Assembly: GCA_965112155.1 (NCBI GenBank)
Contig: OZ218101.1
Direction: 5' to 3' (one strand)
Source of the DNA: Podarcis liolepis
Taxonomy: Eukaryota
DNA length: 64,000 nucleotides
Made by a program: the position numbers and the translations under genes. The notes under the pieces are model-generated. The model was not told the DNA's origin. It worked only from the letters and a program-made list of their open reading frames with translations, and made no database searches. Below, in pieces: positions 1 to 55,573 of the stretch (within the stretch, counting starts at the first letter, position 1; every line of letters begins with the position of its first letter).

Positions 1-996
1 ATAAGTAAAATGTATTTCCGTGTCTGTGATATCAAATACTGAACACATGCAACATATTTAATGGAACTAGTTTAGTGATAATTTCCCCCCACAAGCACAG
101 AAAGTCACACAATCTACTATTTTAACAAGGATAAAATCAAACTACACTACTTACTGGTTTGGGACAACATTTTCTGCAATGTCAACAACAAACAAAGCCC
201 CCCATAGTGTCTGCAAAATGCACCTTGTCCTTTAACTCACTCTCAGCTGGCTTTGCTCACTATCAGTGATATCATTTCATACCAATGTCCGACTGGCTAC
301 ACAATATTTGGTGCCACCCAGTTCACTGTGTTGAAATCTTGGTTGAAATCCTCATCATTATATCTAATCCAGACACATGCAGAGAAAAAATGCTGCTTTG
401 GAGCCATAATGGAATACAAGGTCACTGAAAAAGTTATTCACCATCATCACATTTATTTTTTTTAATTTTGCAGAAAATATTTCTGCACATACCCATACCC
501 TGAAACCCAAATTGAAATAGAGTATTTTGGGCAGATCTGCTTTTATGTGTGTTTATATTCACACTAAATATATTACTGATCACTTACACAGATGAACACC
601 TTAATTGTTGTCCATCTTCAAGTAACAGTGACCTCATTCACACATCAAAGTAAGCAAACTATAGCTTACCAGGACTGTACAAACCTGCAGCCTCCAATAG
701 AGGAGATCACAGCGGCTTGGCTTCTCCCCAGTCTGATTTACTCCCCAGCTAAGCTAAATCCAAGTTGACTTTTTATTTTAAAGCATTTCTGAACTGCTTC
801 ATACTTTAAATATTAAGTGGTGTACACTATGTACAATATAACAACAATGTCCATTAAAACAAAACAGCAGCCTAAAATCAATTAAACAATACAAAGACGT
901 AAAAGCAAATTAAATAGATTCAGGGTCTTCATACACCTAAATCAGGGGCCATTGTTATGCATCAGATAAAGATAAGACTGAATCAACATCATCATC

Positions 997-1049
<53 letters not shown>

Positions 1050-1080
1050 CGCCCATCGGACTGAGTTGCGGCTTCCAACA
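997..1080 (-). repeat. (ATT)n microsatellite as the tail of a retroposon 3' fragment (L2-type)
   Basis: (ATT)n at 997-1048 followed by cccgcccatc...gcggcttccaaca. A related tail in the opposite orientation is at about 47172-47236. Confidence 0.65.
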
Positions 1081-4000
1081 AATTATTAAGAGAAGCATTG
1101 GTTCTCTGTGGGACTATCTCCTTCTTATCTACACCTCAATTTATAATTTTGAAGCAAGGAAATGTGTTACAAGCCTGCAATTAATGTATTCTCAAGGAAA
1201 CTGACCCTGTTAAGCTTCTGGAATTTTCTACCACTTAGGGAAATGGAATGTGCAAAACCCTAATGTCCCTCTTTGAGATACTTTAAGCTGTTAAGAACAT
1301 TCATCTCCTGACTTACAGAAGCTTCATATGGAAGGTGTTATATTTTTGCTATGTGGTTCATTGAGCAATAACAGAATGCATATAAATTAGTCTTTGAAAC
1401 AGTAGCTGGGTTTAAGCTAAGGAGCGACATGCTCATAGTTCTATGAAACAGAAGAGATGTGAAGTCTCTGTATTAGCAATCTTCCCTCTGTGTCTGAATA
1501 TAGCTACCATTACAGAAAATGAGAAATATATAAGATGACAATGCATAGGATTATAAAATTCAGACCATAATGCACAATTATTCTTGATTCACTGCTTTAT
1601 GTTTTTCCTCTGTATAATCAATAGCTGAAATCAGAAATAAAAAGTGAACTTGAATTGAACTCATTTCCCATTATTCCTTAATTTTTCTGCCCTGGAAAAA
1701 GTCAGATGATTTCATGTCTCAGTTTCACAGAATTTCCCCCCAACCCTCACAAGTATCACCACTATCAAGTTATCCACACTTTTCCAAGGTCAAACATTCT
1801 AACAGATGGATAATAATTAACAGCTTCAGGCACATACAAAGATCATATTTAGCTTAAAATGACATTATTTAAAATATAGTAAATTTTCTGGACAAAAAAA
1901 GATAGTCATGAGCCACAAATTCACGCTAAGAAGCTAAACCAATCTATCTGAATTACAAATATCACTGTTCATAAAATACTGCATTACTGTAGCTAAAGGT
2001 AACCAGCTATTCAGTTTGTTCTTATATGAACTTATCGTATACCTCTGAGAAGTGACCAGTGTGCCATGTAGCATTTTCCTGATCCTAATTGCTGTTTCCT
2101 GTCACTGCAACTTCAAAGCAGAAGCTAATTAGCTTCTCTTCCTCTTAAGCCTGATTTCCTGCTAGACAACCCTAAGGATGTTTCTGCCAAATGAAAAATG
2201 CCTTGACAAACGTCTTCTTGCATTCTACATGTGATGACATACTACATCCCCTATGTCCTACATGGCAGTATATGACACCTGGAAAGAAGGGTGGTATATA
2301 AATAACACCACCACCACCACCACATTGAGGTTTCTGGGGAGATGTTGTTTCTTCCTGCCCTTTGATTTGTTTAACTGGAGATGCAGCACTCAACACTCAC
2401 TGAACTTTCTCAACATTCAAAATGTACCTTCTGGTCCAAAAAGGTTGGTTGCCCCAGGCTTAACACAGTGAAAGCAGGGGTTTTTAAAAGGCTTAACTGT
2501 GGGCGGGGTATACTAAAATCCCTCTTGTATAATCACAGAAGTATCTATTTCCTATCTATTTGCATTAATTTTAAAAAAGTTGTCTCATAGGATAATTTCC
2601 CCATTTGAGGGATGATATAGGGCTTATCGGCCAGCAGATATTTTCCCCATGTACAGATATCTGTGCAGAAGAATCTGTTACATATATGCCTGTCATCCAA
2701 GCCAATTTCCAATAATGGAAAAGGAGCTTCCAGCATGATCATCATCTTTTTTTTAATGTGCAACATAACACGGCAATTTCTGAATGGCCAAGACAACATA
2801 ATAAGTAACATCTCTTGATGCATTGTGATACTGTGCTTGAAAAACAAGCAAATATTTCCTTCATTAAAAATGTACAGAACTTCACTTGTTATCCCAATGA
2901 GAAGATGCACTTGTATTATATAGACAGACTGTAACTCAGAAGCATATGGAATAAATTGTTCTTGCAAAATCTTGTGACGCACAAAGAATTTAAGCAAAAC
3001 AAACCCCTCTTTATTTCAAACAGTTCATTAGCTTAAAACATTTGGTTCTAAAAAAATGGATTCAGTTTTTATGCAAGGAAGCTAACCCTTTACTAAAACT
3101 TATATATTCTTGAAAATTGGAATTACTAAACAAGCCTGCAGCTACAGTTTTCATGTTAAAAATTTTGAACAGTAAATATTTCCAATTACACCTAGCTATT
3201 GTATGGATCAATATTAATAATTTAGCAGTAATTAAGATATTATGTGATGAAATAGTGTCAGTTTAAAATGTGGATTGAACCAAAATTAAGATTTAGGGCA
3301 ATGAGCAAGGCTATATATAGTGAATTAATTCTGTTCGTTAATCTGCATTCTTCACTCAAAGCATTCTGAAGCCATCCCACTAATGTTAAATGTCTCATAC
3401 AGCCTCTGCTCTACAACCAGATGACATTCTGTTATGCCTTTCTGTCTTTCATTACCTCCCTGAAAATAGCTTCCAGTTGCAAATAAAACCACTTCAGCTT
3501 GGTTACCCAAACCCTGAAACCGTATAAATTGTGACAGAAAGTATCTAGTTTTTTGCCTAGTGCTGCAAAGCAGTTTTGGAAGAAGTCCAACATCTTGTAT
3601 GTCGGTTCGGTGCTTTTGCACATGCTTGCTATCTGTACTTGGCACAATCCTGAGAAGAGGTAATTGCAACTCTGTTCAGTGGAGGAAACCAAAGACCTGA
3701 AACAAATATTATTTTTGAAGTTCTGTGCTTTGAATTACACTTTTCATAGGACCAGAAGTTGTATAGGAACTTCAGAAATGCAAAGCTATCCATAGTGGAA
3801 TGCAAAATAAGCAAAATGTGAAATGACTAGACTGAAAGAAAATAAAATGTATCAAAGAAATCTAAACAAGGATACACTAATCATTCACATCTGTTTCCAA
3901 GCTCCACGCAAGAGAACCTCTTTCCCCCTAAAATATTGTGCAACTTCCCTCCCTGCTTTGAGAGAATGCAATGAATGAAGATCAAGAGTGGTATTTTTAA

Positions 4001-4251
4001 AACAGTTTTATTATGTCCCTTGTTGTTTACAGATGCAAAAAGAAGCAGCTTAGCTACAAATATATCTAGATAGGTAGAATATTTTTTACCCCCATCATTC
4101 TGGTGCCCATCCACTACCCAGGGAAGCCTTGAACGATTTAAAATCACAATAAAAAATTAAACAATTTAAACACATACATTACACAACGCTAAAATCAGTT
4201 AAAAGCCACAGCAACAAAGATAATCAGTAATATGACTTTAATAGTCTAAGC

Positions 4252-4387
4252 CAGGCTTCCTCAACCTCGGTCCTCCAGATGTTTTTGGCCTACAACTCCC
4301 ATGATCCCTAGCTAGCAGGCCCAGTGGTCAGGGATGATGGGAATTGTAGTCTCAAAACATCTGGAGGGCTGAGGCTGAGGAAGCCTG
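4252..4387. mobile_element. 136-bp palindromic hAT (Charlie-type) MITE
   Basis: TIRs CAGGCTTCCTCA...TGAGGAAGCCTG. Perfect 8-bp TSD GTCTAAGC (4244-4251 and 4388-4395). Confidence 0.93.
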
Positions 4388-5224
4388 GTCTAAGCCTCTT
4401 AGAATATAAATGTTAGTATCTCAAACAGATTATATAAATAAAAGAATGTGGTCCTTCCTATCAGCCAAGATCAGACCCTCATCGGAGATGTACAGCACAA
4501 TCATACGCAGATTTACTCAGGAAGAAAGTCCCAATATGTTCAATGAAGTTTATTCCCTAGAAAGTGTGTTTAGGATAGACCACCTTAGCTTTGAAGAGTG
4601 GCCGAAATTCAAGAGGACTGGGGCAGAATTTTTGGCCAAAGGTAAGCTAGTCTTAGTGGGTTGGGGGCTCCGTCAGATTAATTTTGTAAACAGGCAACAG
4701 TCACAGGTCATCCTGCAACGTTTTATGAGAATGCTGCCTATTACCGTAATCACTCTTCACATAAATGCAGATGTTAATCTTAATATTTAAAATGTGGTGC
4801 TTGTGCCGTGACTTAATCCTGTGTCTTTAAAAGGGGCACAGCTTTAAATATTTTGCCACTGGCTATATATAGCCCCAACTCTGGAAGGAAACTTCTACTC
4901 CCCAAAAGCCGACAAGGTAACTACTGAAATAGATTGCCTGAGGCTGCAAAGCCATTCAGTTTAAGCAACCTCTAATGGAGAAAAAAATGGGGGCTGCAAC
5001 TTTCATCCTTCCATTAAGGTTTTCTAGCTCTTTGAGGGAAGAACTGCATGGCAGATGCTACCCTATTCTGCTGGCCTGGGCACCAGCTCTGCTCTGGGAT
5101 ATAACCTAGGGTGGGGGAAGAGGGCTTCCCGGGAGAGGCTGCTCTTTGTCAAGCGCAAGGATGTCACTGGCAGTGGTGGAGTTTCTCTTGTTCTACATAG
5201 CCAGAATCTACATTGATAGAACTA

Positions 5225-5291
5225 TGTAACTGCAATGTAAGAACTGTAACTGCAATGTAAGAACTGTAACTGCAATGTGAGAACTGTAACT
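5225..5291. repeat. 20-bp minisatellite, about 3.3 copies
   Basis: Unit TGTAACTGCAATGTAAGAAC in tandem. Confidence 0.9.
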
Positions 5292-5672
5292 TGTGTTTGA
5301 ACTTGCTTGAACTTGCTTTTCCCTCTTCCCTCCCACTTCCCTTTCCTCATATGTCATGTATTTAGATTCTGTGTGTCTCAGTACTGATCTTTGAAAGATG
5401 CTCAGAGCCTAAATGGTAGGGTATGAATGAAATGAAAAATACCAGGATTAATAGCCATTCCTCAACCCATTTCTAACAACCAAAATCATTTTCTTTCTTT
5501 TAGCAATTCAGTTTTGAAAATTCTAGACAGCACAAGTAGCTAAAGCTCAAAAGAGGTACCAGATTTCTTCTAATTTATTTAAAAGGTACAGTTTGTAGTC
5601 TCTCTCATTTTACTACTGTAAGTAGTCCTTGAAATTCAAAAATCTAGCAAGAATGCCCAAATATTTTCAGTT

Positions 5673-5840
5673 ACAGATAGGTAGCCGTGTTGGTCTGCCA
5701 TAGTCAAAATAAAAAAATTCCTTCCAGTAGCACCTTAAAGACCAACTAAGTTAGTTCTTGGTATGAGCTTTCGTGTGCATGCAGACGAAAGTGTATCTGA
5801 AGAAGTGTGCATGCACACGAAAGCTCATACCAAGAACTAA
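5673..5840. mobile_element. Penelope-like element (PLE) remnant made of two inverted partial pseudo-LTRs
   Basis: 15-bp TSD CAAATATTTTCAGTT (5658-5672 and 5841-5855). Contains the reptile PLE terminal sequence (gtagccgtgttggtctg...gcaccttaaagaccaac) and a perfect 34-bp inverted repeat (5750-5783 / 5808-5841). Confidence 0.85.
5793..5830 (+). ncRNA. Minimal type I hammerhead ribozyme motif (PLE-associated)
   Basis: Stem I GTAT (5793-96) pairs with ATAC (5827-30). Core CTGAAGA (5797-5803) plus one extra A. Stem II GTGTG-catg-CACAC (5805-5818). GAAA (5819-22). Palindromic AGCT in place of stem III. Predicted UC cleavage after 5826. Confidence 0.8.
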
Positions 5841-7194
5841 CAAATATTTTCAGTTTCCAGTCTGATGGCAGTTTCAAAACAGTCGTTTTAAGTAATACAT
5901 ATCTGCTCCATATTTGTTCCATTTAGGACAAAAGACAACAGAAATATGTACAGAACATTAATAAATGTAGTTTCCCCAACTTAGCAGATTAATTTCAATG
6001 ACAAATCATGTTACATCATATAACTGGACAAAATAAATATTTGGTTGCATGCGTTTAAGCATAGTACAGGATAACTTTTGTTGTTGACTTTCTCAAACTT
6101 CAATTATTTTAAAAGTCTGAAAAATTTATAGTTTATCTAAATATTCATACTGCAATGGTGTTCCAGCTGAATATCATTTTTAGTTGGCCAACTCACTCAT
6201 ACATATAATGTGATTTTCAGCTCCCATAGGCTGTGATATTACAGATACAATGAATATTTGTAAATTTTGTTTCATGAATATTCATAACAGATGTGTTCCA
6301 AATAAGGCAATAGGTTAACAGTTACTACGGATCCATGAAAAGGAAACATTACTTGTGTCCAATATTTCACAATTTATTTCATAGAATAGGGATGAGAAAA
6401 ATAGCTGGATACGAAGCACAATAGCAAACAGGTCTGTCAGGGTCCTATATAAGAAATAATGTGGTGGAAAAGTCTGGAACACTACTAAATATTAATCCAT
6501 TTTTTAAAAATTGCTGCACCAAAGAAAGGATGAGCACACAGAACCCCCACCTTTTAAAACACAACTATGTGAGATCTGCCTGCATTTAAATGTGATATGT
6601 TACCACATTTGGCTGAAACACTTCAAAAATCCCAATCTCACAGAAATATGTATCTGTCCGTGTGTATCAAACATGCCATGACAGTTAGAAACTGGATCTA
6701 TTTGGAAATAGTACATACCTAATATCTGTAAATACCTAATAAAGAGTTGTTAAAACTTGTAGTTGTTCATGTATCTGTGGGTGCCAATTCTAATATCTAT
6801 AAAAGACTCCTTACAATGAATTTGTTTAGATCCCCTCAGTTCCTCTGTGACAATCAACAACTATGGCAAAAGGAGACACCATGATAGGTTTGCCCTCAAA
6901 GTTCCAATGTGGCAGTGGAATAAAGACTGTAAAAGCAGAGAGAACAGAGTTATAAGGAGATGGGAAGCACATGAAAAGGAAACTGGGAGCATCTTTGATG
7001 TGACAAAATGCAAATGTTCTCCTGAAAGAGAAGATGCACAAATTTTCTCCTTTTCCTGTGGAATTCAAGCATCACTCATGAATGAAGATGCTCTCCCAGT
7101 CAATGTTATCAAGGACAAGGTAAACTCATTGGAAAAGGACCTGCCCTTTTTGTGGTGCCATGCTCATGGACAAAATAATAATAATAATTATGAT

Positions 7195-7687
7195 TGAATT
7201 ATGAAGGAGTGGAAAGAACGCCCAGGCTCAGCTTGTCCAACCTCCTGCAATGCAGGAATCTTAAATAGATAATACATAAAAGATGGCCATCAAATCTCTG
7301 CTTAAAAAGGAGAGTCTACCACTTCCCCGCTGATGAACATCTCTTAGTTCGACACTTGAATTATGTGTTCTAGGACCTTTCCTGCTGTCAATGTCAAGCT
7401 CACTTGTCAGCAGTTACCTGCCTCTTCTCTCCACCCCTTTTGAAGATGGGGGCAACATTTGCCCGCCTCCAGTCCACAGGGACCACCCCTGTTCTCCAAG
7501 AATGGTCCAAGATTATAGACAGAGGCTCTGAGATTACATCTGCAAGCTCCTTTAATACACTTGAGTGGAGCTCATCAGGCCCTGGAGATTTGAATTCATT
7601 TAAAGTAGCTAGGTGTTCCCTTACAACCTCTTTTCCTATCTTAGGCTACAGCTCCTCCTATGCATTGATAACTCTCTTGTCACCAGG
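7195..7687 (-). mobile_element. CR1 LINE relic: ORF2 segment (7359-7687) joined to a decayed 3' end (about 7195-7330)
   Basis: Reverse strand translates KIGKEVVREHLATLNEFKSPGPDELHSSVLKELADVISEPLSIILDHSWRTGVVPVDWRRANVAPIFK, typical of CR1 ORF2 just before the RT domain. A CR1-type 3' sequence (ttgtccaacctcctgcaatgcagg) lies adjacent. Confidence 0.88.
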
Positions 7688-9720
7688 TGGGTGCTGCTTT
7701 CTATGTGGATGTAAATAATTTGATGTTACCATCTCTCATAAGGTATAAAGTGACTCTTGGGAACTTTGCACTGCTAGCTAACTAGGGGAGACGTGAGCAT
7801 TTTGTTCGCCAAAGTATGTCGAGCCTAATCCAAAATAAATTATTTCAGTTTTGCCACATGATTTACAAAAAAGCTGTAGGCTCTTAGCTAGCTGAGTTAA
7901 GGCAATCTCCTTTAACAGACTGTAGACAAATTTATTTCCACCCACTCAAAGATTTAACTAGTATAATTAACTAGTATAATTATAGTAACTTTTTTCCTGA
8001 ACGACCTGGACAAAAAGACTAAGATATCCATACGGGGCCCAGTATGTCTGAACTCAATACAGTTAAAAACCCAAAGATGACAATGTTTACGAAAGAAAAA
8101 GAGAGAGTACACAATATAATATGCTGAGAATTTTGTGAAAATGTACCTAAAAGAAACACTGAGGGGTTAAACCTATTGCATCCAGACAAAGCCAAACTCA
8201 TAGTTTTTAATCTCCTGTTTGACCCTTCCTCTATCACAGCAATTCATCTTTCAAAGAGAAAGTAGCCTCCTTGGGATGGAGATTAATTTGGTGCTAGTTT
8301 CTTCTTTCATCTATTACACATAGATCCTTTTTGGCTGATATACATAATGACTTTTTCAATTTCTTTTACCCTTTGTCATCTAACTACTTAAGATATTTCA
8401 CTTTGAAATGAAGAAAAATAGAACTTTAAAAACTCTACAGGAAGATTGAATTGTGTCTTGGAATAATTTACTACTGCTACCAATACGGAAACAAATAATT
8501 GCTGATTGAACAAAAACTTTGAATGTCATTCTTTCCACGGTGCAATTGTACAGTAATTTTCCAGCTCATTTTCAATATTGTTTTCCCAAAGAAAATTGTG
8601 TCCATAAACTTAATTTGGCAATACATACAAAACATTTCAAATTCCTGATGTGCTATTTAGGGGATCAAGCAAAATAGAAATGGAGCTACAACTTATCTGA
8701 ACCATTCAAAATCTGAACTATACATGCAACTGAGATGAACAGTTCCATGCTTTTAAAAGCCAAGAATCACAATGATAAAAAAAATTACTTATCAAGGTTT
8801 TCTTTTTAAAATGAGCATGATATATAAATGGCAAAGAAGTGAAGAAATGAAAAACAAGTGTTATTGCAAAAGGGGCGAAATTGGATTCACAGTATTTAAC
8901 TCAGCTTCCTAGGCCAAACCCTTCATTCTTGAAGCCAACTGAAAGTCATCTCTTTGTATCTTGATGCTTTTAATGTATGTGTAAAGTATTTTGCTTATTA
9001 TACATTTATGCACATCATCCGCTACACTTAAATGGTGCAGTTAATTAACATCTCAATTAAATGTGTTTTTAAAAGAATGTAGATGTTCATGGAACATACT
9101 GCAAAATAGGATATGGTTCTTTCTAATACTGATTCTGACTCCTCAGTTTTCACATCCTTAGTTGATAAAATAGGAGACTATATTAACATGTGAGCACTGC
9201 AGTACTTAAGCTTTATAACAAGAAAGTTCCCAATTTAGTAAATAATTGAAGGAAAATGTTGAAGCTGCTTAAAATTTCTATATTTATTAGCACCCACCCA
9301 AATCTTAGGCATGTTTTCTCATAAGTAAGTCCCACTATGTTTAGGGCTTGATCTTCTTTTGCAGTATCTCATATCCATTTTGGATATGTCTCTTCAAGTT
9401 CTCTCCATCATTATCTGCTGTTTGCTTCTTGCTTCCACAAAAGTCCTGCTGTGAGTTTTAGATCATCAGCCCATCACATAGATGATTATCCCCTTAGCCT
9501 TTTGAAATTGTAAGGTTTCCATACTAACACTGCTTTATTTAGATAAATTCTAATCTCAGATAAATTCTAATAGTGCTTACTTCCTAATAAAGTAATGTCT
9601 GATTCTAGCTCAGGTTTGCCTATTCTTAACAGCTCCTTGTTGAAACAAAATTGTGTCACCATTCCAGTACATTAATAAAAACCATCCTGCTTTTGTTGGG
9701 AAGTTAACTCAAAAAGGACT

Positions 9721-9794
9721 TGGTCTTTAAGGTGCCACTGGAAGGATTTTTTTTATTTTGACTATGGCAGACCAACACGGCTACCTATCTGTAA
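9721..9794 (+). mobile_element. 5'-truncated Penelope-like pLTR fragment
   Basis: Near-identical reverse complement of 5673-5745. TSD TCAAAAAGGACT / TCACAAAGGACT (9709-9720 and 9795-9806, 1 mismatch). Confidence 0.85.
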
Positions 9795-10187
9795 TCACAA
9801 AGGACTAGTAAGACATTTTGCTGCCTAAGGAGAAGGACAAAATATCCCCACCCCATTCCACAGACAGAAGCTGACTGAACTGGCAGTTAAACTCAGCTTT
9901 ATTATCCACACCATAGGGTAAACACATGCGAGACACATTTGGAAAGAGGCTGGTTATATGTTTCAAATGTTTACATGGTAATGCTAGAAGTCTCCAAGTC
10001 AAAATGCTTGCAAAATGCTTCAGTGAGCTGAAATGCTTAGTTTTAAAGGAGAACAACATATTGACACCTGGTGGAATGAAGGGAACTGGTGTAACACTCA
10101 TCTCTGAATACAAACTGTAGTAGGGGTAGGAAGCCTGTGGCCTTCTCATCATGCCTAATCATTGGGCCAGGCTGGTTGGGATTGAAG

Positions 10188-10328
10188 GAATCACAGAATT
10201 GTAGATTTGGAAGGGACCACAAGGACAATATTTCAACCCCCTGCAATGCAGAAATATTTTCACTAACGTGGGTCTCAAATCCACTACCTTAATTTTAAAA
10301 GTCTCATGCTCTACTGACTGAGCTATCT
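10188..10328 (-). mobile_element. tRNA-headed SINE with CR1-derived tail (Squam2-like)
   Basis: Reverse strand begins gatagctcagtcagtagagcatgagactttt (tRNA-Lys-like head) and ends ggtcccttccaaatctacaattctgtgattc (CR1 3' end). Confidence 0.78.
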
Positions 10329-10473
10329 CTAGAGACATCTGGAGGACCACTCTATTGGAAAGACAGAGGCTTTGCCTAGACGCTAGATGAAATTGTTGTG
10401 GGAAACCAATGGCGGCTGCCTCCAGATGATAACTCTGGCATCTTTAGTAAATTATAGAGATAAGCATTGATTA

Positions 10474-10699
10474 CAGTGGTACCTCGGGTTAAGCACTTAA
10501 TTCGTTCTGGAGGTCCATTCTTAACCTGAAACTGTTCTTAACCTGAAGCACCACTTTAGCTAATGGGGCCTCCTGCTGCCGCTGCACCGCCACCACGCGA
10601 TTTCTGTTCTCATCCTGAAGCAAATTTCTTAACCCGAGGTACTATTTCTGGGTTAGCGGAGTCTGTAACCTGAAGCGTCTGTAACCCAAGGTACCACTG
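10474..10699. mobile_element. Tc1/mariner (Tigger/pogo-like) MITE, 226 bp
   Basis: TA|CAGTGGTACCTCGGGTTA...TAACCCAAGGTACCACTG|TA. A sister copy is at 28791-29021. Confidence 0.92.
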
Positions 10700-12300
10700 T
10701 ACTTAAGAAAAGGCCTGTTACTTACATAATCTCCAAGCTCCTAATAGTTAGTTGACGGTCTTTGATTTAAAATTTCAGTGTGTTATTATATATTGATACT
10801 GTTGTAAACCACTTTGATTTTTTTATAATATAGCGGTACATATTTTTATAAATAAGTAAATGTTTAGATACAGCATGCAAATTATCTCAGACATGTGTCC
10901 CAATATAAATGTCAGTTTTCCAAAACAGAAGTCATATACATGGAAGGTTCATGAGAATCGCATGAAAATCAGCCATCATACCATGAGCACTTGATGAGTT
11001 ATATATGACAAGTACCCTGTGCCTAGCTCCCAAAGATGTAAGAAAGCAAACATGCCATATGTCTCCTTGTATTTAATTCTTACTGAAGAGCAGAATTATA
11101 ATGCAAATATCTTTTCATGCACCCAATTTATAGGAGCACCTGATTTTCTCTTTTAATGAACAGTCTTGCATTAAACGACTAGTGGAAGATCTGTTCCAGT
11201 CAAATCTATTAATTAATTTCTCATCCTTTGTTCATCATGGTTGCTTCCAGCAAACTGTTAAATTGGCTATGCTTACAGCAGAATGGAGTGGGATTTAAGT
11301 TGTAGAGTTCTGAAATGGCAGAACAGATAGTGCTACTTTAGAATACGTACAAGAGAAGGGACATACTTTTTTAAGCTCTCCCTTACACAATACACTTCCT
11401 CTTGCACAGCAAGAACATGATACACATCCCTCATGATGAACTGGGTGTTTCTTAGCAGACACTTTTTTTTTTTAAGGTTGAAAGCATTAAAAAATTTTAT
11501 TTGTACACCTTCAGTCTAAAATGATATAGCCCACTCTAGTAAATTTAATGGTCCTGCTTCTCGTTACTTTTTTTGCTAACTTTTCTTATCACTTATCCAT
11601 CAGTTGGCAAAACTTTTAAAAAGGCAAAAGGGTTTGTTTCATTGTAACACTGCAAAATCAAGTTCAGGAGAGCATCTTCTTTTTTTTTTTAGTTCAAAAC
11701 TCTACAGCGAGGTCAAAACCCTGCACGCTTAGTTGTTTTTTTTCCTGCAACAGAATTGCTGCGGTTATCCTATGTATCACTGCGAATGGAAACAATTAAC
11801 CACAGGACCATAATAGTTGAGCCTGTCCATAACTGGCTGCAAAGATTTAAAGGAAAAAGAAACATCCCTGTAAAGAATTAACAAATTGCATGTTGGATCT
11901 AGACTTCCAGTGAGTGGAGTTCAACTCATGTGGCACTGGAGGAAGAGATTATTTTTCTGACTTCTCCTTCCCCCACAGTACTCTGCATCCCCTGAAAACT
12001 GCTCTGATGGTGCTGGGAGATGCAGGAGGGGAAATTGGCAAAAATTACCTCCTTCTGTTTTGTCCAAGAAGAGCTTACACTGCATTGCAGTTCACTCTAT
12101 AGTCTGGATGCGACAACTATGTGTGTACTTGTTTTCTCTAGATATACTTGCAGGAACAGGGGAAACCCCCAAAATCAGAGTTCCTGCAACATCAGGTGCC
12201 TAACTGCAGATACCCTAATTATTTGTATGCATGCTCCACTTGCCCCATTATAATGTGCACAGCCAAGTGTGAGATTCTATTTTCAGCTTTTGTTCTTTTA

Positions 12301-12534
<234 letters not shown>

Positions 12535-12683
12535 TTAAACATCAAGTACTCTGAATGAGAAGAATCATTTTGTTAAAGAGGGCAATGGAAGGTTGAACTA
12601 CAGATACTTCCACAGCTCCTTCCTGAGGGTTTATTTCCAGGACATGAAGAAGAATATATATTTGATTGATATACGATTATTTA

Positions 12684-12851
12684 CGTATTTTTCACTCTAT
12701 AACACGCACCCGACCATAACACGCACATAGTTTTTAGAGGAGGAAAATCCGTAGGCATGCCACCCGTAGGCATTCCCTCCATAACACGCTCAGACATTTC
12801 CCCTTACTTTTTAGGAGGAAAAAAGTGAGTGTTATGGTGCAAAAAATACGG
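12684..12851. mobile_element. Tc1/mariner-type MITE, about 168 bp
   Basis: TA|CGTATTTTTCACTCTATAACAC...GTGTTATGGTGCAAAAAATACGG|TA, with internal repeats of ATAACACGC. Confidence 0.85.
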
Positions 12852-15800
12852 TAAGCTCCTTAAATTTATTTTATTTTTTAAACATGTAAATATCACCTGT
12901 CATGTGAAACACATCAAGGCATACCAAAATAAAGACAGCAAAACAGTACAAGTATACAGTATTCTAAAAAGAAGGGAATAACGGATAATTATTAGACATA
13001 CAGAAAAAAAACCATACAGGGCGTGAAAGCCCCTCACAGGCTTTTCAAAATCTCGGAAAATAGTGTGATGAGAATAGTACAAAGAGAAATAAACCTAATT
13101 TTGCAAACTAAAGTTCATAGGGACACTATTATTTTATGTTTTATATCTTTACTGTGGCGTTTCAGCCTCTTATCTGCCTGCAGTTCCAATACTGGATGTG
13201 AAAAAGTGACAAAGACAGACACAGACAATGTGTCACCCCAAGAGAAAAGCATGCCAGGTCACAAATGATCCTTTAGACTGCAAAGGTAAGTGGCCCCTCA
13301 CAACTTGGGAATACACCAGGGAAAACAAAAGACTACAAAACAAAACAAAACAAAACAAAACAAAACCCAGCAATGTAATATTTACTGCATTAAAATGTGC
13401 TCTTATATCATTTCAGAGTTGTTTGGAGTCAGGAACAGAGCTGTACGTAAGGACAGTCTTATTAAGTTAAGATTATATCAGAAGTTTAAAGTGAAGACAT
13501 ATTTTGAAAGGATCTCACCATAAAGGGATTTTTAAAAAAATCTAATTAAATGTTTTTACAAATCTCAAGGGCCTTTCATGTCTGGGGAAGCTCATAAAAC
13601 CTAAGATGAAAACTCCTCAAATATCTGCTTGGATTTTTACTTTTTTTTAGCACCTTTGAAGCAACAAAGAATTTCAATACCAGCTTAATAAGAGCAAATT
13701 ACTTGAGTAATTTTTCTACTTGTTAGGATAAAGTCTATCTTACAAGTGTATTACCTTGTCTGTAAACTGAGAACATTTTACCAGTTAACCAGCCTTAAGA
13801 GGACATCAAAGGACTTGGAATAGATAAAGCAATTCCCCCTCCCCCATTTACTATTAATTATTTTGGCTCTAACATTACATAATGAAAAGTTAACAGAATG
13901 TAATCCACTAGAGATTACTCCAAGATAGCAGTCATGGAATTATTTCTACACTGTAAAAGGGATACATAGTTTGGGATTGCTTCGGGCCCTGGCAATCGAA
14001 CATAAAGCTATAAATTTAAGGATTGCTTCTCTTGCTGAAAAAGCAATTTTCTTCCCTGTCCTTTATACATTGAGTCTCAAAAGTAATCTGAGCATGCATT
14101 TCCTTTTGAAAATGTATTAGTAGCATACTTCATAATCCAGTACAGTATGTTCCTTTAGTTATCCAAGGCTAAATTTTCAGCATGTGTCTCTCATTTGGTA
14201 AATGAAAAATTGTTTGGAAAGCAAGAAACTAAAATATGAAAAAAACAAGTGACTATTTCAGTCTGAAGTGCTCCTGCTTAGAGCTCTAGCCAGTAAGGCC
14301 TATTTTCAGTTAAATCAGACAAATTATAGCTGGAAAAAGTAGAGATGGAGAATTTCCTTGCATTGCCAAAACAGCTAATTTCAATCCATTGGCTTCCATT
14401 GGCAAGTCTTTAAGAGGCCACCTACACTTAAGTTTTTAAGTCTAAAATGTATGACATTTTTTAAAACAGCTCTTACTGATGGCATTGGAAGTTACCATAG
14501 CTCAATGATCCCACACCACAATAAATTATGAAGTTAGAATCAGATGTGACATTATGTAATTCACCCAAAAACATTTTGATTGTGCATTATGCTTGCTAGA
14601 ATGGAAACAGAAGCAGAAATAGAAGTACACTGAAATCAAAGAAGGAAATGCCAGATTTTTAGGACCCAGAGATTCCCCTCTATTACTTGGTGTCCAAACA
14701 CAATACCTTCTAAGTTTTCTGATTTTCCAGGAACAGTCCTGGAATTACAAAAGCTATCCCAGCTTCTGATTTGATCCCAGACTATCTCTATTTCCCCTGC
14801 CAGTGCTGTCACATGGTGGAAGCTGCGGCAGTTGTGGCTACGAGGGAGCAGCCCATTGCCTCTCCATGGCCACTGCTGCAGCAGTGGCTCATAGTGGCTA
14901 CAGGAGAACGGAAAAGGAGCAGGAGACGCTGCCATAAGAAGCTGATGCAATACAAGGCGGCATCTTATGTTGCACCTTTCTGCATCTTTTCCATGGTGAG
15001 GCATGGTGACCAGAACTGCACACAGTATTTCAGAAAACTCTGATATTCCAGATATTGGACCCCCATTCTCATCAGTTCCAACCAGCATGACCATTGGTCA
15101 GGGATTATGGGAGTTGTGATCCAACAACACTGGCGGGTAGCATATCCTCCATCCTATTTTCACTTCCTTCTCAGCATACACCTTCCTTCATTAGCTGCTA
15201 AACATTGGCTCAAATATTTCATTGAGCCATCCACCACAATCATAGTATATCTTCCTGGTCAGTCACTTCCACCAACATCTTCAGTCCAACAGCACCTGGA
15301 AGGCCACAGGCTACTTACCCATGTCTTATAGCAGGATTTCCTTTTTGCTGGAAAGTTATCCATACCTTATTCTATATCAATGTATAGAATATATCAATGT
15401 TTCACTTTACAAAGTGATCAAGCAAGCATAAGAACATCATATTACTATGCCAATTTATTGTAGCATTCCTTTCTAAAAGGCACCCTCCTTTCAAAGTTTG
15501 TTTAAATGTATTTTAGATCACTTAAAATCTTGATGGGATTTGACATGAACAATTTTCTTCATTAAAATTCTAGGACACTCCCTTTACTCTTCATTTTGAA
15601 AAGAAACAGAGCTCGGTGAATAACTAGGTTTCCTTAGATAAGAATGAGGCAACATCAATTTCCACTTAAAAAGGGGAAAGTGCATACAACTGGAGGGGGG
15701 ATGCCTCATTATGTCATTTAAACAGTATGGAAGCTGCAGCAATTTCCTGCATCACTCTGGAAGAGTGCCTGATACAATTCCTTCTCGTGCCATAGGATAG

Positions 15801-17851: not shown

Positions 17852-18808
17852 TGTTATAGCTGGAGTACCAGAGTCTGTTAGTGAATATCAGAAACTAATA
17901 AATATTTGGAGTATTGAAGGGAGGATTTCAAGCCAGTGGGAATACACATTCCAAGCTACATTTGGGATAGAGATCATTAAAATGACAAAAGGATGACCCA
18001 TCATAGAGATATTCCTGGGTCTGTGCAGAGTTGTCATGGTTACCATGGACACAGAAAGGTTGAGGATTGAAAATGTGGAGAAACTGTGCTCAAATGAAAA
18101 TTTGTGCCTTTTTAAAAACTAGGCCTGGTGTGGCAGATGGATGGGGAGGAGTTGCTTGGAGCGAGGTTTCTCTGGGAACAAGCAAGTAGGAAGAACGCCA
18201 TGTGGTGGCTGAAGGGCACCAGCCCTTAGAGCTGGCTGGGAAGCAGGAACAAAGGGATGGTACTTATAATGGCTGTATCTGCAATGCTGGGCTGCTATGA
18301 AGCAGCCTATGCTACGAAGGGAGCCAGTGTGGTGTAGTGGTTAAGAGTGGTAGTCTCGTAATCTGCTGAACCAGGTTTGCTTCCCCGCTCCTCCACATGC
18401 AGCTGCTGGGTGACCTTGGGCCAGTCACACTTCTTTGAAGTCTCTCAGCCCCACTCACCTCACAGAGTGTTTGTTGTGGGGGAGGAAGGGAAAGGAGATT
18501 GTTAGCCGCTTTGAGACTCCTTAAGGGGAGTGAAAGGCGGGATATCAAGTCTAAACTCCTCCTCCTCTTCTTCTTCTATGAAGAGCAAGCTGTTCTTGAA
18601 ATGACAGTGCTGTAGGATCTGCACCCCCTTCATTTATACTAAGGTGTAAATACGTGTTATTAAGCCATATTTCTTAAAGACACTACTGCCTCCACCATGT
18701 ATTGATTCTCAATGGAAACACAACAGTGGGTTAACACCTGGAACCCTCTAGAATCTTGTGCACCACTCGGCAGCGATGGGGTGTGTGTGGCAAGCAGCCT
18801 TTGTAACA
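17852..18808. mobile_element. Solo LTR (Gypsy or ERV1-like), about 690 bp, interrupted by a SINE
   Basis: Termini TGTTATA...TGTAACA (inverted, 1 mismatch). 4-bp TSD ATAG at 17848-17851 and 18809-18812. Confidence 0.72.
18319..18575 (+). mobile_element. Full-length tRNA-derived SINE (Squam3-like)
   Basis: GGGAGCCAGTGTGGTGTAGTGGTTAAG head (A box), B-box-like GGTTTGCTTCC, (CCT/CTT)n tail. TSD CTACGAA / CTATGAA (18312-18318 and 18576-18582). Confidence 0.9.
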
Positions 18809-20643: not shown

Positions 20644-20975
20644 CCTGGTGATATCAAAATAAACCATGCAAGGAGGGAGATGCAGCCCAAGATAGGAAAA
20701 GAGGTGGTAAGGGAACACCTAGCTACTTTTAATTCAAATCTCCAGGGGCTGATGAGCTGCACCCAAGCATACTAATGGAGCTTGCATATGTAATCTCAAA
20801 GCCTCTATATAATCTTTGAGAATTCTTGAACAGAGAACAGAGGAGGTCCCTGCAGACTGGAGACGGGCAAATATTGTCCCCATCATCAAAAAAGGGGGAA
20901 AAAGAAGACCCAGGGTAACTACCAAAGTGTAAGCTGGACATCAATATCAGGAAACGTGCCAGAACAGATAATTAA
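20644..20975 (+). mobile_element. CR1 LINE ORF2 fragment
   Basis: Frameshifted KIGKEVVREHLAT...SPGADELHP...VPADWRRANIVPIIKKG. Homologous to 7359-7687 in the opposite orientation. Confidence 0.88.
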
Positions 20976-22329
20976 ATGTGTTAAGTATTTATTATTGTCT
21001 TTTTATCCATTTCTGTGAAATTCTTACAATAAATAAAAAATTGCATATTCTTATATGAAAGGATGAAATTTTGTATTGCGTAGGACTGAAAAAAATTAAA
21101 TTTTATCTAATGCTTTGTACATTTTTTTGGCAGAATATTTTCTCTTTGTCTCAAAGGTTACACTATAGCAGATCTCATAGCAGATACACTATTGTACATC
21201 AGCAACCCATTGTAGCATTCAAGCATTTTGGATAAAGTCCCACAGGAGATTATCATTTTTATCCTATTTTTTGTTTGTACCAATGAAAGAAAATCAGCTG
21301 AGAGATTTATTCACTACTTTCTTAGATGACAAAATTATTGCAGCCTGCTTCTTTCACTCTATTGCAATTTGTTTCCTTTACAGACGGCAAAATGACCACA
21401 ATTCTATTTATATTATCCATTAATAAACCAAATCTTATGATGGAAAGTCAAATCATTCTTAATCGGTAATAGACAAATCCAGTCATCAACAGAAGCAACT
21501 GAATGTTTATGTGCACATATCATGAAAGCATAGGTCACATTAAAGTATCTGGAGATTTAATTAAAAGAAAGATGAAGCATCTTAATGAGAAGCACCACTG
21601 CCATAAACAATGGAAATGCACGTTATTCCCTAATAGTATAAATAATTTAAGAATTCTACAATGGAAATTAATCTACATATCATGTAACACACACAACTAT
21701 GCCTGTTCCAACTGAATAACGAGCTAAGAAAAAACTCAGGTAGACAATAAAAAATTAGACTGAATAAGAAAGGCAGAGGGGAAAGGGCAAAATGGACTAT
21801 TAATATTCTTCTGGACTGGAAGATTGGAAATGCTAATAATAAGTAATTAAATGTTAGGCACTAATTTTTCTTATTAATTAAGGAGAGAAATATCAGTGCG
21901 AAAGCTCTATTTCATCCAGTACTACCAATGTGAAAACACTATTTTACAGTGCCATCCTATACTTACCTATTCAGAAACAGTCCCTATTAAATTCTAGGTG
22001 ATTTATTCCCAGACAGTGTGCATAGCAGGGGTGTGAAACCCACAGCCCTCAGTTTCATACTATGTGGCTTCCTATGCCCCCAGGAATCTCACATTAGTTC
22101 AGGCACTTGATTGCATAGCTGGTAACTGTGATGCAGCTGCAGCTGCCACTAATGCAAAGAAAAAGTAACTCAACAGAGACTAGCCATTGAATGTGAGCTC
22201 AGAGAGACCTAGTCACAGAGCTTGCTGGGTAGAGGTCCAGAGCATTCCTTGCTATTACACCCTAGGCATCGTTCTCTGTTGTTTGGACTCACACATTTCC
22301 CTGTTGTTCTTTTTTTCAGTATTTCCTGG

Positions 22330-23974: not shown

Positions 23975-24283
23975 AGAAAGAAGAAGAAGAAGAAGAAGAA
24001 GAAGAAGAAGAAGAAGAAGAGGAGGAGGAGGAGGAGGAGGAAGAGGAGGAGTTTGGATTTGATATCCCGCTTTATCACTACCCGAAGGAGTCTCAAAGCA
24101 GCTAAAATTCTCCTTTCCCTTCCTCCCCCACAACAAACACTCTGTGAGGTGAGTGGGGCTGAGAGACTTCAAAGAAGTGTGACTGGCCCAAGGTCACCCA
24201 GCAGCTGCATGTGGAGGAGCGGAGACGCGAACCTGGTTCACCAGATTATGAGTCTACCGCTCTTAACCACTACACCACACTGG
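23975..24283 (-). mobile_element. Squam3-like SINE with expanded (CCT)n(CTT)n tail
   Basis: Close reverse-complement match to 18319-18575. The tail appears as (GAA)n(GAG)n at about 23975-24050. Confidence 0.9.
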
Positions 24284-41979: not shown

Positions 41980-42115
41980 CTGGCATAGGCAAACTCGGCC
42001 CTCCAGATGTTTTTGGCCTACAACTCCCATGATCCCTAGCTAACAGGACCAGTAGTCAGGGGTGATGGGAATTGTAGTCTCAAAACATCTGGAGGGCCGA
42101 GACTGAGCAAGCCTG
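41980..42115. mobile_element. hAT MITE of the 4252-4387 family with non-matching termini
   Basis: The body is nearly identical to 4252-4387. Left end is CTGGCATAGGCAAACTCGG and right end is CCGAGACTGAGCAAGCCTG. Confidence 0.85.
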
Positions 42116-43985
42116 GCTTAGATTATTAAATCTCTTTAAAGCAAATTAATGGAAAAGTAAATTTCAATGGCTATTAGCTATATGCAAAATAAAATCAAGC
42201 TCTCGAAGAAAACAACAGGATATAACTAGCAGAAGCAGCTCACCACCATGGCTTGCATACAAAAGGTGCCATGTTAAATCCCTGGGCTCCTCCATATATG
42301 ACTTTAAAAACACTTTCTGAAATCCTGGAGAGCCACTGGTATGTGGTGTAACACTGAGCTGGATGGATCAACCACCTGACATAATATAAGGGGATCCTAC
42401 AAGAAGTACTTCCACTTGCCCACACATTTGTTGAGCCAAATGGGGATTCTGTCCTGGGAGACTGACACTGGCATCACTCCACTTTGTTGGAGAGACTCCT
42501 TGGCCCAATCCATACCCCCACCCTTGGCCTGGTGCAAAGGGGATGTACCGGTAGATTGTAGCCATAGACAGCAAAATACTTTGTGGTGTTTTCAACAGTT
42601 TTCCTTTACAATGCATGCATGAAGATCAAAATAATGTATGACTTCTTTTTTATTTTTGGCAGGGAAAGACTACTTGTTAACTACACATTAATAACACTAG
42701 TATTCTTTTTTTACACGTCTCAATAATTCAGTATTTAACTATCCTTTAAAAATGTTACAAGACTTGTCTTTCATAGCAGTATCATGCTAACTATTTCAGT
42801 CTGCAGCAACTGTTGCCTGCCAGTTCTCAATGTTTCATATTAGTGAGCATAATAGAATATTATGGAAGCCTAATTGGCAGAAGTGAGCAATCTGATTGGC
42901 TGAGTCATACAGCTTTCTAATTTTTTTAGCATAATATATATTTCAGCATGGGCATTTTACAGCCATTATGAAACTATAAGGTCAACCAGGCCTCTGAAAG
43001 CCTGACCAAAAACTAAGATGCAAGAGAACTTACGTATTCAGGGATAAAATCTCAAGCAAGCAAATGCATCTGTTGTAGAAATTAGTATTTAATATATATT
43101 GTAAAATATGCTTTCTGTACAGCTAGTTTCATAATTCAGCACTTATGTTACCCTGCATTGCTCCAAAATCCATGTGGGATACAGTGAAATTTGGATCAAG
43201 GAATGTTGTACATATGGTCTTAATTGCATTTTGCAATAAAGCCAGGGTCCAACATAAAGAATTTTTCCCCAAAAAAGCCAGCTTGCAAACTGGGGCTTTC
43301 ATGTCAAGCTTTCCAATAAAAAAGCAGCAGCAGATGTGGCTTTGGCGATTAACTTGGTTAGGACATTTCCCCTCTCCAATCTGCCCACACCCAGCAAATG
43401 CCACATATCTCTATGAAAACATCAGTTTCTGTTGGGGAAACATGTAGAGACCTTCTTAATTGTCTCTAAGAAGCTGATGAAGGACACATGTTAATTACTG
43501 TTATCTTAAAGGTTTGGTGATCATTTAGTTTATCCTGTGCCTGAAATACTGTTCTACGGTAAATGCTAGCCTTTGCTTCAGAATATTAAGGTTTAGTACA
43601 GCGGAAACACTTTGAATAAGATAACCATTCTGGCTATTAACCATTTATCAAAACATTGTAATAGAGTTACTACTGTCTGGAGTGTATCCTATGATATATT
43701 TTTATTTTAGATATTTATTAAATTTATATACCAACCTTCAGCAAAAGATCTCAGGGCAGTTCACAGAATGATGTGAGTGAAAAGCAGTTTGCTTAACCAA
43801 ACTCTCTCTCTTTCCTTTCTCCTCATGTGCACACACCACCCCCAGAAGTCATGCCCAGAAATTTGGAGTGCCTTTCTGAGCAGTGTGCTTTCACGAGCAT
43901 AAATGGGGGGAGAGGGGAGATAACTGAATTTGGGTGTAAGTTTCTTGAACCACTTAAATTCCATTCATGCCAGGTTGTTCTAATT

Positions 43986-44122
43986 CAGGCTTCCTCAACC
44001 TCAGCCCTCCAGATGTTTTTGGCCTACAACTCCCATGATCCCTAGGCTAGCAGGACCAGTGGTTGGGGATCATGGGAATTGTAGTCTAAAAACATCTGCA
44101 TGGCCGAGGTTGAGGAAGCCTG
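43986..44122. mobile_element. 137-bp palindromic hAT MITE
   Basis: CAGGCTTCCTCAACCTC...GAGGTTGAGGAAGCCTG. TSD TTCTAATT / TTCTTATT. Confidence 0.92.
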
Positions 44123-44959
44123 TTCTTATTTCAGTTTATTTCTAGCAAACACAGTAGTAACCTGCAACACAGTCCACACTGTTCATAACCCCCTTTTCCC
44201 TCAACTCTTTGGTGAGGTTTGTTAGAAGTGGAGGAAAGATGAAAAAGCCTTCCAATCATCAGATACAACCATATGTAAATATTTTACCCTCCACATTTCA
44301 TTCATGGGATCCAAATACACAAGATCATTTGCTAAAAGATTTAATGCAATAAGCACAAAAAAGAATAATCTTGTGCAGAGAAAGATTCTATAGAATTTTC
44401 CACAGAAGGGATCCTCAAGACAGGAACAGGGAGCGAGACATGACTCTTTGTACCCTAGGATGCCACTACCTATTCTTTACATATGAAAACTATATCTAAA
44501 CACATAAGAATCTCCAACCCATTCCTGAACATACAAATAGATGTATACAAAAAGAAGATTGCTAACAGTCTTTACAAATGTATGCTCTTGGCTCAAGACA
44601 ATGGCCTATACCTCTGAAGACTGAAGTCATACAAAAGTTTACTCCCAAGCAATGATATTCTTGACGGAGGAAATACAATATGCACTTAAATAAAGCTACT
44701 AGAAACCATGATTGTAAACAGATCATAAAAATAATCCATGCTTGATAAGAACTCCACCTTCAGAACATTTTTTAAAGATTGTAATCACATGGCAAATACA
44801 CAAATCTACTCAATAAGATATTTATGTAAAATAAGGGAAACCACAATTTCTGAGCTCATGAGTTATTGCCTATTACTTATTAATCACAGAAGTTTGTTAC
44901 ATATTTTTAGCATCTGGAACTGTTTGTAATTTATTACTTAAATCTTATATTCTAGTTAC

Positions 44960-54527: not shown

Positions 54528-54727
54528 NNNNNNNNNNNNNNNNNNNNNNNNNNNNNNNNNNNNNNNNNNNNNNNNNNNNNNNNNNNNNNNNNNNNNNNNN
54601 NNNNNNNNNNNNNNNNNNNNNNNNNNNNNNNNNNNNNNNNNNNNNNNNNNNNNNNNNNNNNNNNNNNNNNNNNNNNNNNNNNNNNNNNNNNNNNNNNNNN
54701 NNNNNNNNNNNNNNNNNNNNNNNNNNN
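54528..54727. other. Assembly gap, exactly 200 N
   Basis: Run of N. Confidence 0.99.
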
Positions 54728-55573
54728 TACTTTCTCCATAATCAGTGCAAAAAAATTCACACATTGTCATGTGTGTTTTTTAATTTTTACTAAAAAGTCT
54801 CCACAAGGAATTTGTCAGTATCTTAAGTGACCTTTCGTTATGTGTGTTTCATTTTCACCTTTTGTCTAACTTGTTTAACTGACTGGTGGGTACACAAAAT
54901 TAATCTTCTGGCCTTTTATGTACCAAAGTCTCATTAGATACTGTGACCCTGATATCTAACAATATTTTTTTTGCAACAGTTAAAAGGTTAAAGGGTCTGT
55001 GATTAGAAATGACAGGTTTGGAGATCAGTAAATCAATACTAGGCTTTGAGTTGACCACAGTGATAGCTTTATGTACAAAGGTCAAAGCATTTAAAAGGTT
55101 CAGAAAATGGTAATGAAAACTCTTCTTTCAACTCCTTTATATTCTCTTTTTTCCAAAGAACACCTGCATACCATAGTAGATTTAGTCAATAGAAAAATTA
55201 AAATCATGATTAGAGAAGCATGATGGAGAAGATGGAGAAGGTAAATATTTCAGTAGTAAATTGAAATAAATTTGACTGTTTCCAACAAAACATTTGTTTG
55301 AACATGGTAACAGTTCCAATCATACCAAGCCTGCACATGTGATATTAAAGAACTCAAATGTGAAACTGCTCATCATATAACAAAACACAAAACGTGTCTC
55401 TAAGATCAATCTCTGTACCTGTGGACTGGAAAATGGCCAACATAATACCAATTTTTAAAAAGGGATCCAGGGGAGATGATCTTAACATCTCTTGCAGGAA
55501 GGCAGATTAGCTTAATGTCTCTTGCATAATGTCTCTGGTGGAAAGCATTGTTAAAGATAGAACTAACAAACAG

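Follow-up and report, generated by a model that had tools for sequence, protein, structure and literature searches.

Penelope-like elements (PLEs) carry minimal type I hammerhead ribozymes in their pseudo-LTRs (pLTRs), and these motifs are described as having the hammerhead core boxes, a 4-bp helix I, one nucleotide ahead of stem II, a G10.1–C11.1 pair and a palindromic helix III (PMC4209133; this and the other papers cited here were available in part). Such motifs in reptiles, and paired motifs 100–700 bp apart on opposite strands, were noted by Cervera and de la Pena 2014 (PMC4209133). Single minimal PLE motifs did not cleave according to the available text of that work, and dimer formation or protein help has been published for relatives of the element treated below (PMC4209133, PMC11167929). 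EN+ PLEs are known to leave inverted-pLTR insertions, which have head-to-head 5′-truncated copies, a target duplication, a tail of 30–40 nt at one end and a pLTR with a TATA box and an initiator-like motif (PMC3846280; PMC8557442, Fig. 2 legend). For the Anolis Poseidon element PAc (Frangieh et al. 2024, PMC11167929), both target strands were cut and extended, two internal reverse transcription starts bounded the tail, uncut RNA was the main template, ribozyme cleavage was dispensable for insertion, and the hammerhead required the element's protein. The origin of PLE inverted copies with a one-sided tail is left unsettled in the available text of these papers (PMC11167929, PMC8557442, PMC3846280). 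Finally, non-LTR retrozymes are short, non-coding, pLTR-derived and equipped with a type I hammerhead, and form head-to-tail tandem arrays with at least two complete ribozymes (bioRxiv 10.64898/2026.07.22.740005).

We analysed a stretch of 64,000 nucleotides of Podarcis liolepis DNA (contig OZ218101.1; hereafter the window) that holds a hammerhead motif in an intron of ROBO1. We consider it probable that the motif is an intact passenger of a recent and likely dead-end fold-back of 168 bp, derived from a Neptune-type PLE, in which a predicted 34-bp lock likely keeps it from cleaving. The locus has the features of the PLE hammerheads and of the inverted-pLTR insertions listed above, and inverted arms, tail and hammerhead are already published. 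It differs from the described hammerheads in its stem II, which has 5 bp versus 7–8 in Schistosoma families, and in lying inside a fold-back that it forms with an antisense copy of itself. Unlike the described EN+ insertions, it contains the leader only, and target duplications in its family are mostly 12–13 bp compared to 8–10 bp in Adineta. PAc belongs to the Poseidon clade and has its start codon in stem II, whereas the parent here is Neptune-like; furthermore, no difference between strands in reverse transcription start is described for PAc, whereas insertions here pair one long and one short end. A non-LTR retrozyme identity was rejected, as the locus has one complete motif in an inverted arrangement and not tandem units.

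The hammerhead motif and its parent element

The original prediction described a complete minimal hammerhead with stem III reduced to a palindrome, of the class known from PLE pLTRs. We found all of its parts in place (Table 1), with helices I and II, the CUGANGA, GAAA and UH boxes, and the helix III palindrome AGCT at 5822–5825. The class assignment also held: A5804, the G5805–C5818 pair and the palindromic helix III are those of the published pLTR motif (PMC4209133). Stem II is itself a perfect 14-nt palindrome. An exact search of the 1.57-Gb genome returned 9,879 copies of the 38-nt motif, while the reversed sequence, used as a control in the same search, returned 0, indicating that the motif is not a product of chance. 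The strand split (4,999 forward and 4,880 reverse) is uninformative on orientation bias in introns, since fold-backs face both ways. A covariance-model search had been suggested as a check, and it failed to recover the motif: an Rfam scan of positions 1–15,000 returned no hammerhead family at E ≤ 10. Two other readings of the sequence were rejected. The microRNA precursors MIR1222 and mir-466 scored 38 and 33 bits against gathering thresholds of 90 and 85, and the matches corresponded to the hairpin itself. A type III hammerhead cut at UUC^A (−4/−3; the hammerhead's first base is numbered 0 throughout) was dropped by eye, with at most 1–2 pairs in helix I.

The suggested comparison of core and stems was more favourable. 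Three PLE families of the genome have the same hammerhead core with different stems, and their helix III palindromes are AGCU, ACGU and a 12-nt sequence; the comparison was made by eye on three sequences, and two of the helices are weak, helix I in family 2 and stem II in family 3. That the core is kept in two further families indicates functional conservation of the motif class, in line with the literature. These further families are young and are represented by L191 and L192 (915-codon frame) and by L279–L281 (746-codon frame), each with its own hammerhead. In one of them the ATG lies where stem II begins, as it does in the Anolis element; the other has the 12-nt palindrome.

Judged by its coding features, the parent is a young Neptune-type PLE. 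The unit measures 3,008 bp, with a 910-aa ORF that combines a reverse transcriptase (RT) with a GIY-YIG endonuclease at the C terminus, and its ATG lies at +96, 62 nt beyond the cut. When the genome was searched with the RT region, many intact frames of 926 codons were found, and those fetched were partial tandems of 3,008 bp, frequently accompanied by an inverted copy. The RT domain (Pfam PF00078) was found on P0002, which is 98% identical to the parent protein. The GIY-YIG domain scored above its cut-off, and copies chosen by position extend upstream into the GIY-YIG frame. Ahead of the endonuclease we found a C-x4-C-x2-C linker, which corresponds to the CX2-5CxxC criterion (PMC8557442). This linker is common to the Neptune and Nematis clades (PMC8557442); it points to Neptune here, in an assignment made from the linker and not from a tree.

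Two side observations concern the same element. Annotated lacertid proteins (P0003–P0011) contain its endonuclease region at 86–89% identity, most of them together with PF00619, and these would be either exonisations or annotation artefacts. In two single-cell RNA runs (7 and 12 reads) we found a joint that leads 192 nt back from inside the ORF to the leader at −3 (L187:3220-3411), which would reflect either a circular RNA or a tandem stub in the genome.

Structure of the 168-bp insertion

The hammerhead forms the right arm of a 168-bp head-to-head fold-back insertion (Table 1). The 34-bp inverted repeat and the 15-bp target duplication were both absent from the original prediction. All the hallmarks of EN+ PLE insertions, namely partial tandems, an inverted 5′-truncated copy, a one-sided tail and a target duplication, were found for this element and its insertions. 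The long arm is truncated and begins inside stem II; it includes the GAAA box and the cut site as well as the T tract, the start codon of the ORF and the tail, and the last 5 nt of the left duplication also fit the element tail (microhomology). The junction between the arms was apparently templated from the 3′ side of stem II. The short arm starts at an initiator-like A located 30 nt downstream of the parent's TATA box, which was not copied, and it ends outside the T tract, which is unusual among family copies.

Table 1. Features of the hammerhead, the surrounding insertion and the host gene in the window
Feature	Position	Strand	Remark
Minimal type I hammerhead motif	5793..5830	+	38 nt; predicted cut after 5826
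Stem I, 5′ strand GTAT	5793-5796	+	read from sequence
Core box CTGAAGA	5797-5803	+	read from sequence
Extra nucleotide A ahead of stem II	5804	+	read from sequence
Stem II	5805-5818	+	5 bp with 4-nt loop; G5805-C5818 = G10.1-C11.1
GAAA box	5819-5822	+	read from sequence
GC	5823-5824	+	read from sequence
TC (UH site)	5825-5826	+	read from sequence
Stem I, 3′ strand ATAC	5827-5830	+	read from sequence
Target-site duplication, left copy	5658..5672		15 bp; exact repeat of 5841-5855
Long arm, pLTR +15 to about +130	5673..5783	-	116/116 identical to a young copy (L100)
Junction between arms	5784..5789		6 nt; from sequence and alignments
Short arm, pLTR -3 to about +48	5790..5840	+	52/52 identical to a young copy
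Fold-back hairpin	5750..5841		inverted repeat; 34 perfect bp (5750-5783 / 5808-5841)
Target-site duplication, right copy	5841..5855		15 bp; exact repeat of 5658-5672
ROBO1 exon (first half of Ig2), upstream of host intron	12310..12467	-	approximate boundaries

With both arms 100% identical to a young family copy, the insertion is, on this alignment, recent. The undecayed core that had been put forward is indeed intact, but a further significance of this for the copy is not supported; it means that the insertion is recent. An empty site was found in run X17, which comes from a relative (5 substitutions in about 680 aligned letters): a 1,755-nt contig joins 5657 straight to 5841 and has one copy of the duplication. 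Run X15 contained the left junction with 17 element letters only and thus does not bridge the insertion; flanks at half depth may weakly suggest heterozygosity.

Ends of family copies and proposed origin of the fold-back

We examined how the arms of family copies end. Of 134 arms, 65 had their 3′ end within +120 to +139, the tail, and 66 had it within +82 to +99, the T tract. Among 44 head-to-head pairs, 41 combined a long and a short end, 2 were long–long and 1 was long–other; leaving the last one out, the excess of long/short pairing was significant (41/43, binomial test, P = 2e-10). Three of the 44 pairings look spurious (a duplication of 4 nt; two more than 1.1 kb apart). The duplication measured 12–13 bp in 29 of the 44 pairs.

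The 5′ ends were tabulated for 105 arms anchored by an exact match downstream; the first 100 matches on contig C1 supplied nearly all of these, and two extra stretches a few. We found 41 starts at −4 to +3, 37 further upstream, 18 at +5 to +24, none at +25 to +35 and 9 at +36 to +47; some of the far-upstream starts are indels that halted the ungapped extension and not true ends. Genome-wide, the 9,879 exact motifs include 3,997 that retain the native 7 nt upstream, and a break at −2 occurs in 2,441 copies. Full copies have a TATA box 30 nt before the A at −3, and from this spacing transcription likely starts at −3. Few arms start at the cut itself, at most 110 (711 non-C copies minus 601 substitutions). 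For comparison, +33 has at most 61 starts and +35 about 62, the latter an estimate from 89 copies and from 21 truncations among 30 inspected. This weak excess, less than twofold, may mean that a small share of templates was cut. Set against the pile-up at the initiator-like site, the few starts at the cut indicate that the templates were mostly uncut. In raw RNA reads of a related organism, which are mostly host transcripts running through stubs, the transitions out of the element fall at the same four boundaries (−2/0/+1, the T tract and the tail). Molecule starts did not accumulate at the cut or at the presumed start in these reads, which come from libraries that are poor for starts.

A different account of the pile-up at −4 to +3, as a splice acceptor or an RT pause in place of a transcription start, is in our view unlikely. 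The most frequent start is −2 and not −3 (16 versus 1 of the 105); it adjoins a CAG that could be a splice acceptor. The TTTCAG ending at −2 is acceptor-like, and in D. virilis the Penelope intron runs up to the 5′ end of helix I (PMC4209133). However, the inspected junctions had no common upstream exon, a structural stall would be expected on the 3′ side of the ribozyme, and a TATA box is located 30 nt upstream of −3.

The two arms of an insertion also share variants. Substitutions at C17 occur in 601 copies versus 61 and 89 at neighbouring positions, about twenty times the background of the next position, and nearly all of those in the first 100 listed copies are U. The NUH rule permits C17-to-U. 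When these first 100 variant copies were counted by eye, 56 fell into 28 head-to-head pairs; among the remaining 44, 4 were clearly concordant, 1 was doubtful and 5 were discordant for T. The rare variant was therefore present in both arms of 32 of 37 informative insertions, compared to about 4% expected from its frequency, a count that leaves out the doubtful L257, four A/G variants, 26 T loci without a second arm and 4 with an arm missing the site. The C17-to-U class is probably one active subfamily and weak evidence of selection. The shared variants show that both arms come from a common source element, not necessarily from one RNA molecule, and copying of one arm from the other would equally yield them.

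Together, the end pairing, the shared variants and the starts at the initiator site fit twin priming on uncut leader RNA. For this copy, the RT-endonuclease would have cut both target strands about 12 nt apart, and each 3′ end would then have primed reverse transcription within the RNA leader. One end would have been primed at the tail (+123 to +136), and the other at about +48 instead of in the T tract (+82 to +99) that is normally used. Both cDNAs would have run toward the 5′ end of ribozyme-uncut RNA from one source element, one of them reaching the likely transcription start at −3 and the other stopping in stem II, and the two would have been joined head to head via palindromic stem II. 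The general form of this proposal is one on which we stand evenly divided: the thousands of hairpins would record an insertion in which an RT-endonuclease dimer starts synthesis from both strands of a 12-nt stagger, with the leader of one and the same uncut, capped RNA source as template and with one active site at the tail and the other at the T tract. Asymmetry, inversion and duplication would all result from one twin-primed event, and the ribozyme would cut only about 1% of templates.

The main rival is self-priming or fold-back copying on an antisense template (PMC3846280), by which the inverted arm would not derive from a second target-primed event. We give it a modest chance, well below that of twin priming. 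The palindromes at the junction, here stem II, are what it would lead one to expect, and the shared variants fit it equally well, as arm-from-arm copying. The long/short pairing and the sense-strand start fit it less. Both arms very often begin near −2 with unrelated letters at the junction, and in many pairs, this copy included, the arm with the short end extends further 5′ than its long-ended partner. Furthermore, the 3′ ends lie in two fixed zones adjoining the 12–13 bp duplication, and the 5′ ends track the sense-strand TATA box and initiator. The counts thus favour a sense template over the antisense self-priming of PMC3846280.

We did not find twin priming stated for PLEs in the literature searched, which comprised titles and abstract openings, with older papers on PLE structure and promoters out of reach. 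Twin priming as proposed here would join the Anolis in vitro results (PMC11167929) to the genomic pattern of inverted copies and one-sided tails (PMC8557442, PMC3846280). Fig. S2 of PMC11167929, which maps the ends of genomic copies, may already show the 5′ pile-up. The family is of some value as a data set on PLE inverted copies with a one-sided tail, more so than the locus. The end statistics yield sharp predictions that are testable in the existing in vitro Anolis system.

Predicted behaviour of the copy in the ROBO1 intron

The placement of the motif antisense within a ROBO1 intron was borne out. ROBO1 runs on the minus strand with exons on both sides, so the hammerhead is intronic and antisense. 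On the right, the reading frame at 12,298–12,534 matches ROBO1 Ig2, and on the left the next exon lies about 4.3 kb outside the window (G000:C4:61,809,733). The upstream exon lies 6.5 kb away from the insertion, and the downstream exon about 10 kb. The original prediction also held that the ROBO1 pre-mRNA would be spared. Its strand indeed lacks CUGAAGA, yet it carries the 3′ half of the motif (GAAA-GC-UC-AUAC), and it folds into the same hairpin. Acting as double-stranded RNA, this hairpin could affect ROBO1 RNA independently of the ribozyme, through A-to-I editing, small RNAs or a cryptic T-tract acceptor. The perfect 34-bp stem is available for this on the pre-mRNA strand too, but the distance from both exons, the absence of the insertion in a close relative and its being one of thousands make such an effect improbable. 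On the ROBO1 strand, the long arm has a T tract with CAG within 10 nt (5695–5715, minus), an unscored possible cryptic splice acceptor. One RNA run of a relative, compared with 5300–6200, gave reads on the repeat only and 0 on the flanks, and is uninformative on expression of the locus.

We examined by folding prediction whether this copy can cleave. The isolated motif, or the motif in the parent leader RNA, adopts the hammerhead fold within 0.8 kcal/mol of the predicted ground state. At the locus (5740–5860 or 5600–5950), the active fold lies 34 kcal/mol above the predicted ground state, and the pair probability of stems I and II is about 0. The hairpin energy for 5740–5850 is about −66 kcal/mol on the plus strand and about −62 on the minus strand. 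On either strand, stem II, GAAA, the cut site and the 3′ strand of stem I are predicted to be paired with the left arm. On the plus strand this antisense arm is transcribed ahead of the motif. When two isolated motifs were co-folded, pairing of the palindromic stem II was preferred over the double hammerhead (−32.6 versus −12.7).

These results bear on the claim that the ribozyme is active here, as monomer or dimer, and would cut antisense transcripts through the ROBO1 intron. We regard this as very improbable, even with an intact core that folds at little cost in isolation and that is retained in three PLE families. Because the left arm is predicted to lock the motif and the TATA box is missing, cleavage of antisense RNA at the locus is unlikely, and the claim is unsupported. 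The stem II dimer would outcompete the double hammerhead, single minimal motifs were uncleaved (PMC4209133), and the Anolis motif needs protein (PMC11167929). According to the models, the hammerhead at this locus is likely inert on both strands, although an RNA whose start falls between 5784 and 5792 would avoid the hairpin. The fragment 5785–5845 that had been suggested for cleavage assays is free of the blocking arm, and so reports on the family and not on this locus. Since its fold is predicted to be nearly the ground state in the parent leader RNA, the family motif is probably functional there, helped by protein or as a dimer, in line with published relatives. The locus is of little import for ROBO1 or ribozyme biology, being one member of a set of some 10,000 identical young copies and predicted to stay closed.

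Least probable of all is that the hairpin is a non-autonomous MITE- or retrozyme-like element spreading as a unit: similar short hairpins number in the hundreds (604 candidates, 40 scored), but the best 30, picked by likeness and excluded from the counts above, vary at the central junction or at the end of the short arm and are each flanked by a duplication of their own, none of them has the short-arm end of this copy, and there are no tandem units. A MITE-like fixed palindrome was largely ruled out by the variable ends and internal junctions among copies.

The window contains further repeats. At 9720–9794 on the plus strand, in the same intron and 4 kb away from the long arm, lies another stub of the Neptune-type element, which spans about +51 to +127 and lacks the hammerhead; it is 97% like that arm and inverted to it, and is flanked by an 8-bp repeat at 9713 and 9799. 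A different hairpin element of 100 bp at 4270–4369 (−59.6 kcal/mol) recurs at 41,990–42,122 and 43,979–44,126 with 88–93% identity and is likely a MITE. We also found two dispersed repeat pairs, one at 18,324–18,576 and 24,031–24,283 (92% alike) and the other at 7,352–7,687 and 20,644–20,981 (79% alike), the latter reading like a LINE RT fragment. A run of N lies at about 54,530–54,730, and a 20-bp tandem repeat of 3.3 copies at 5225–5291.
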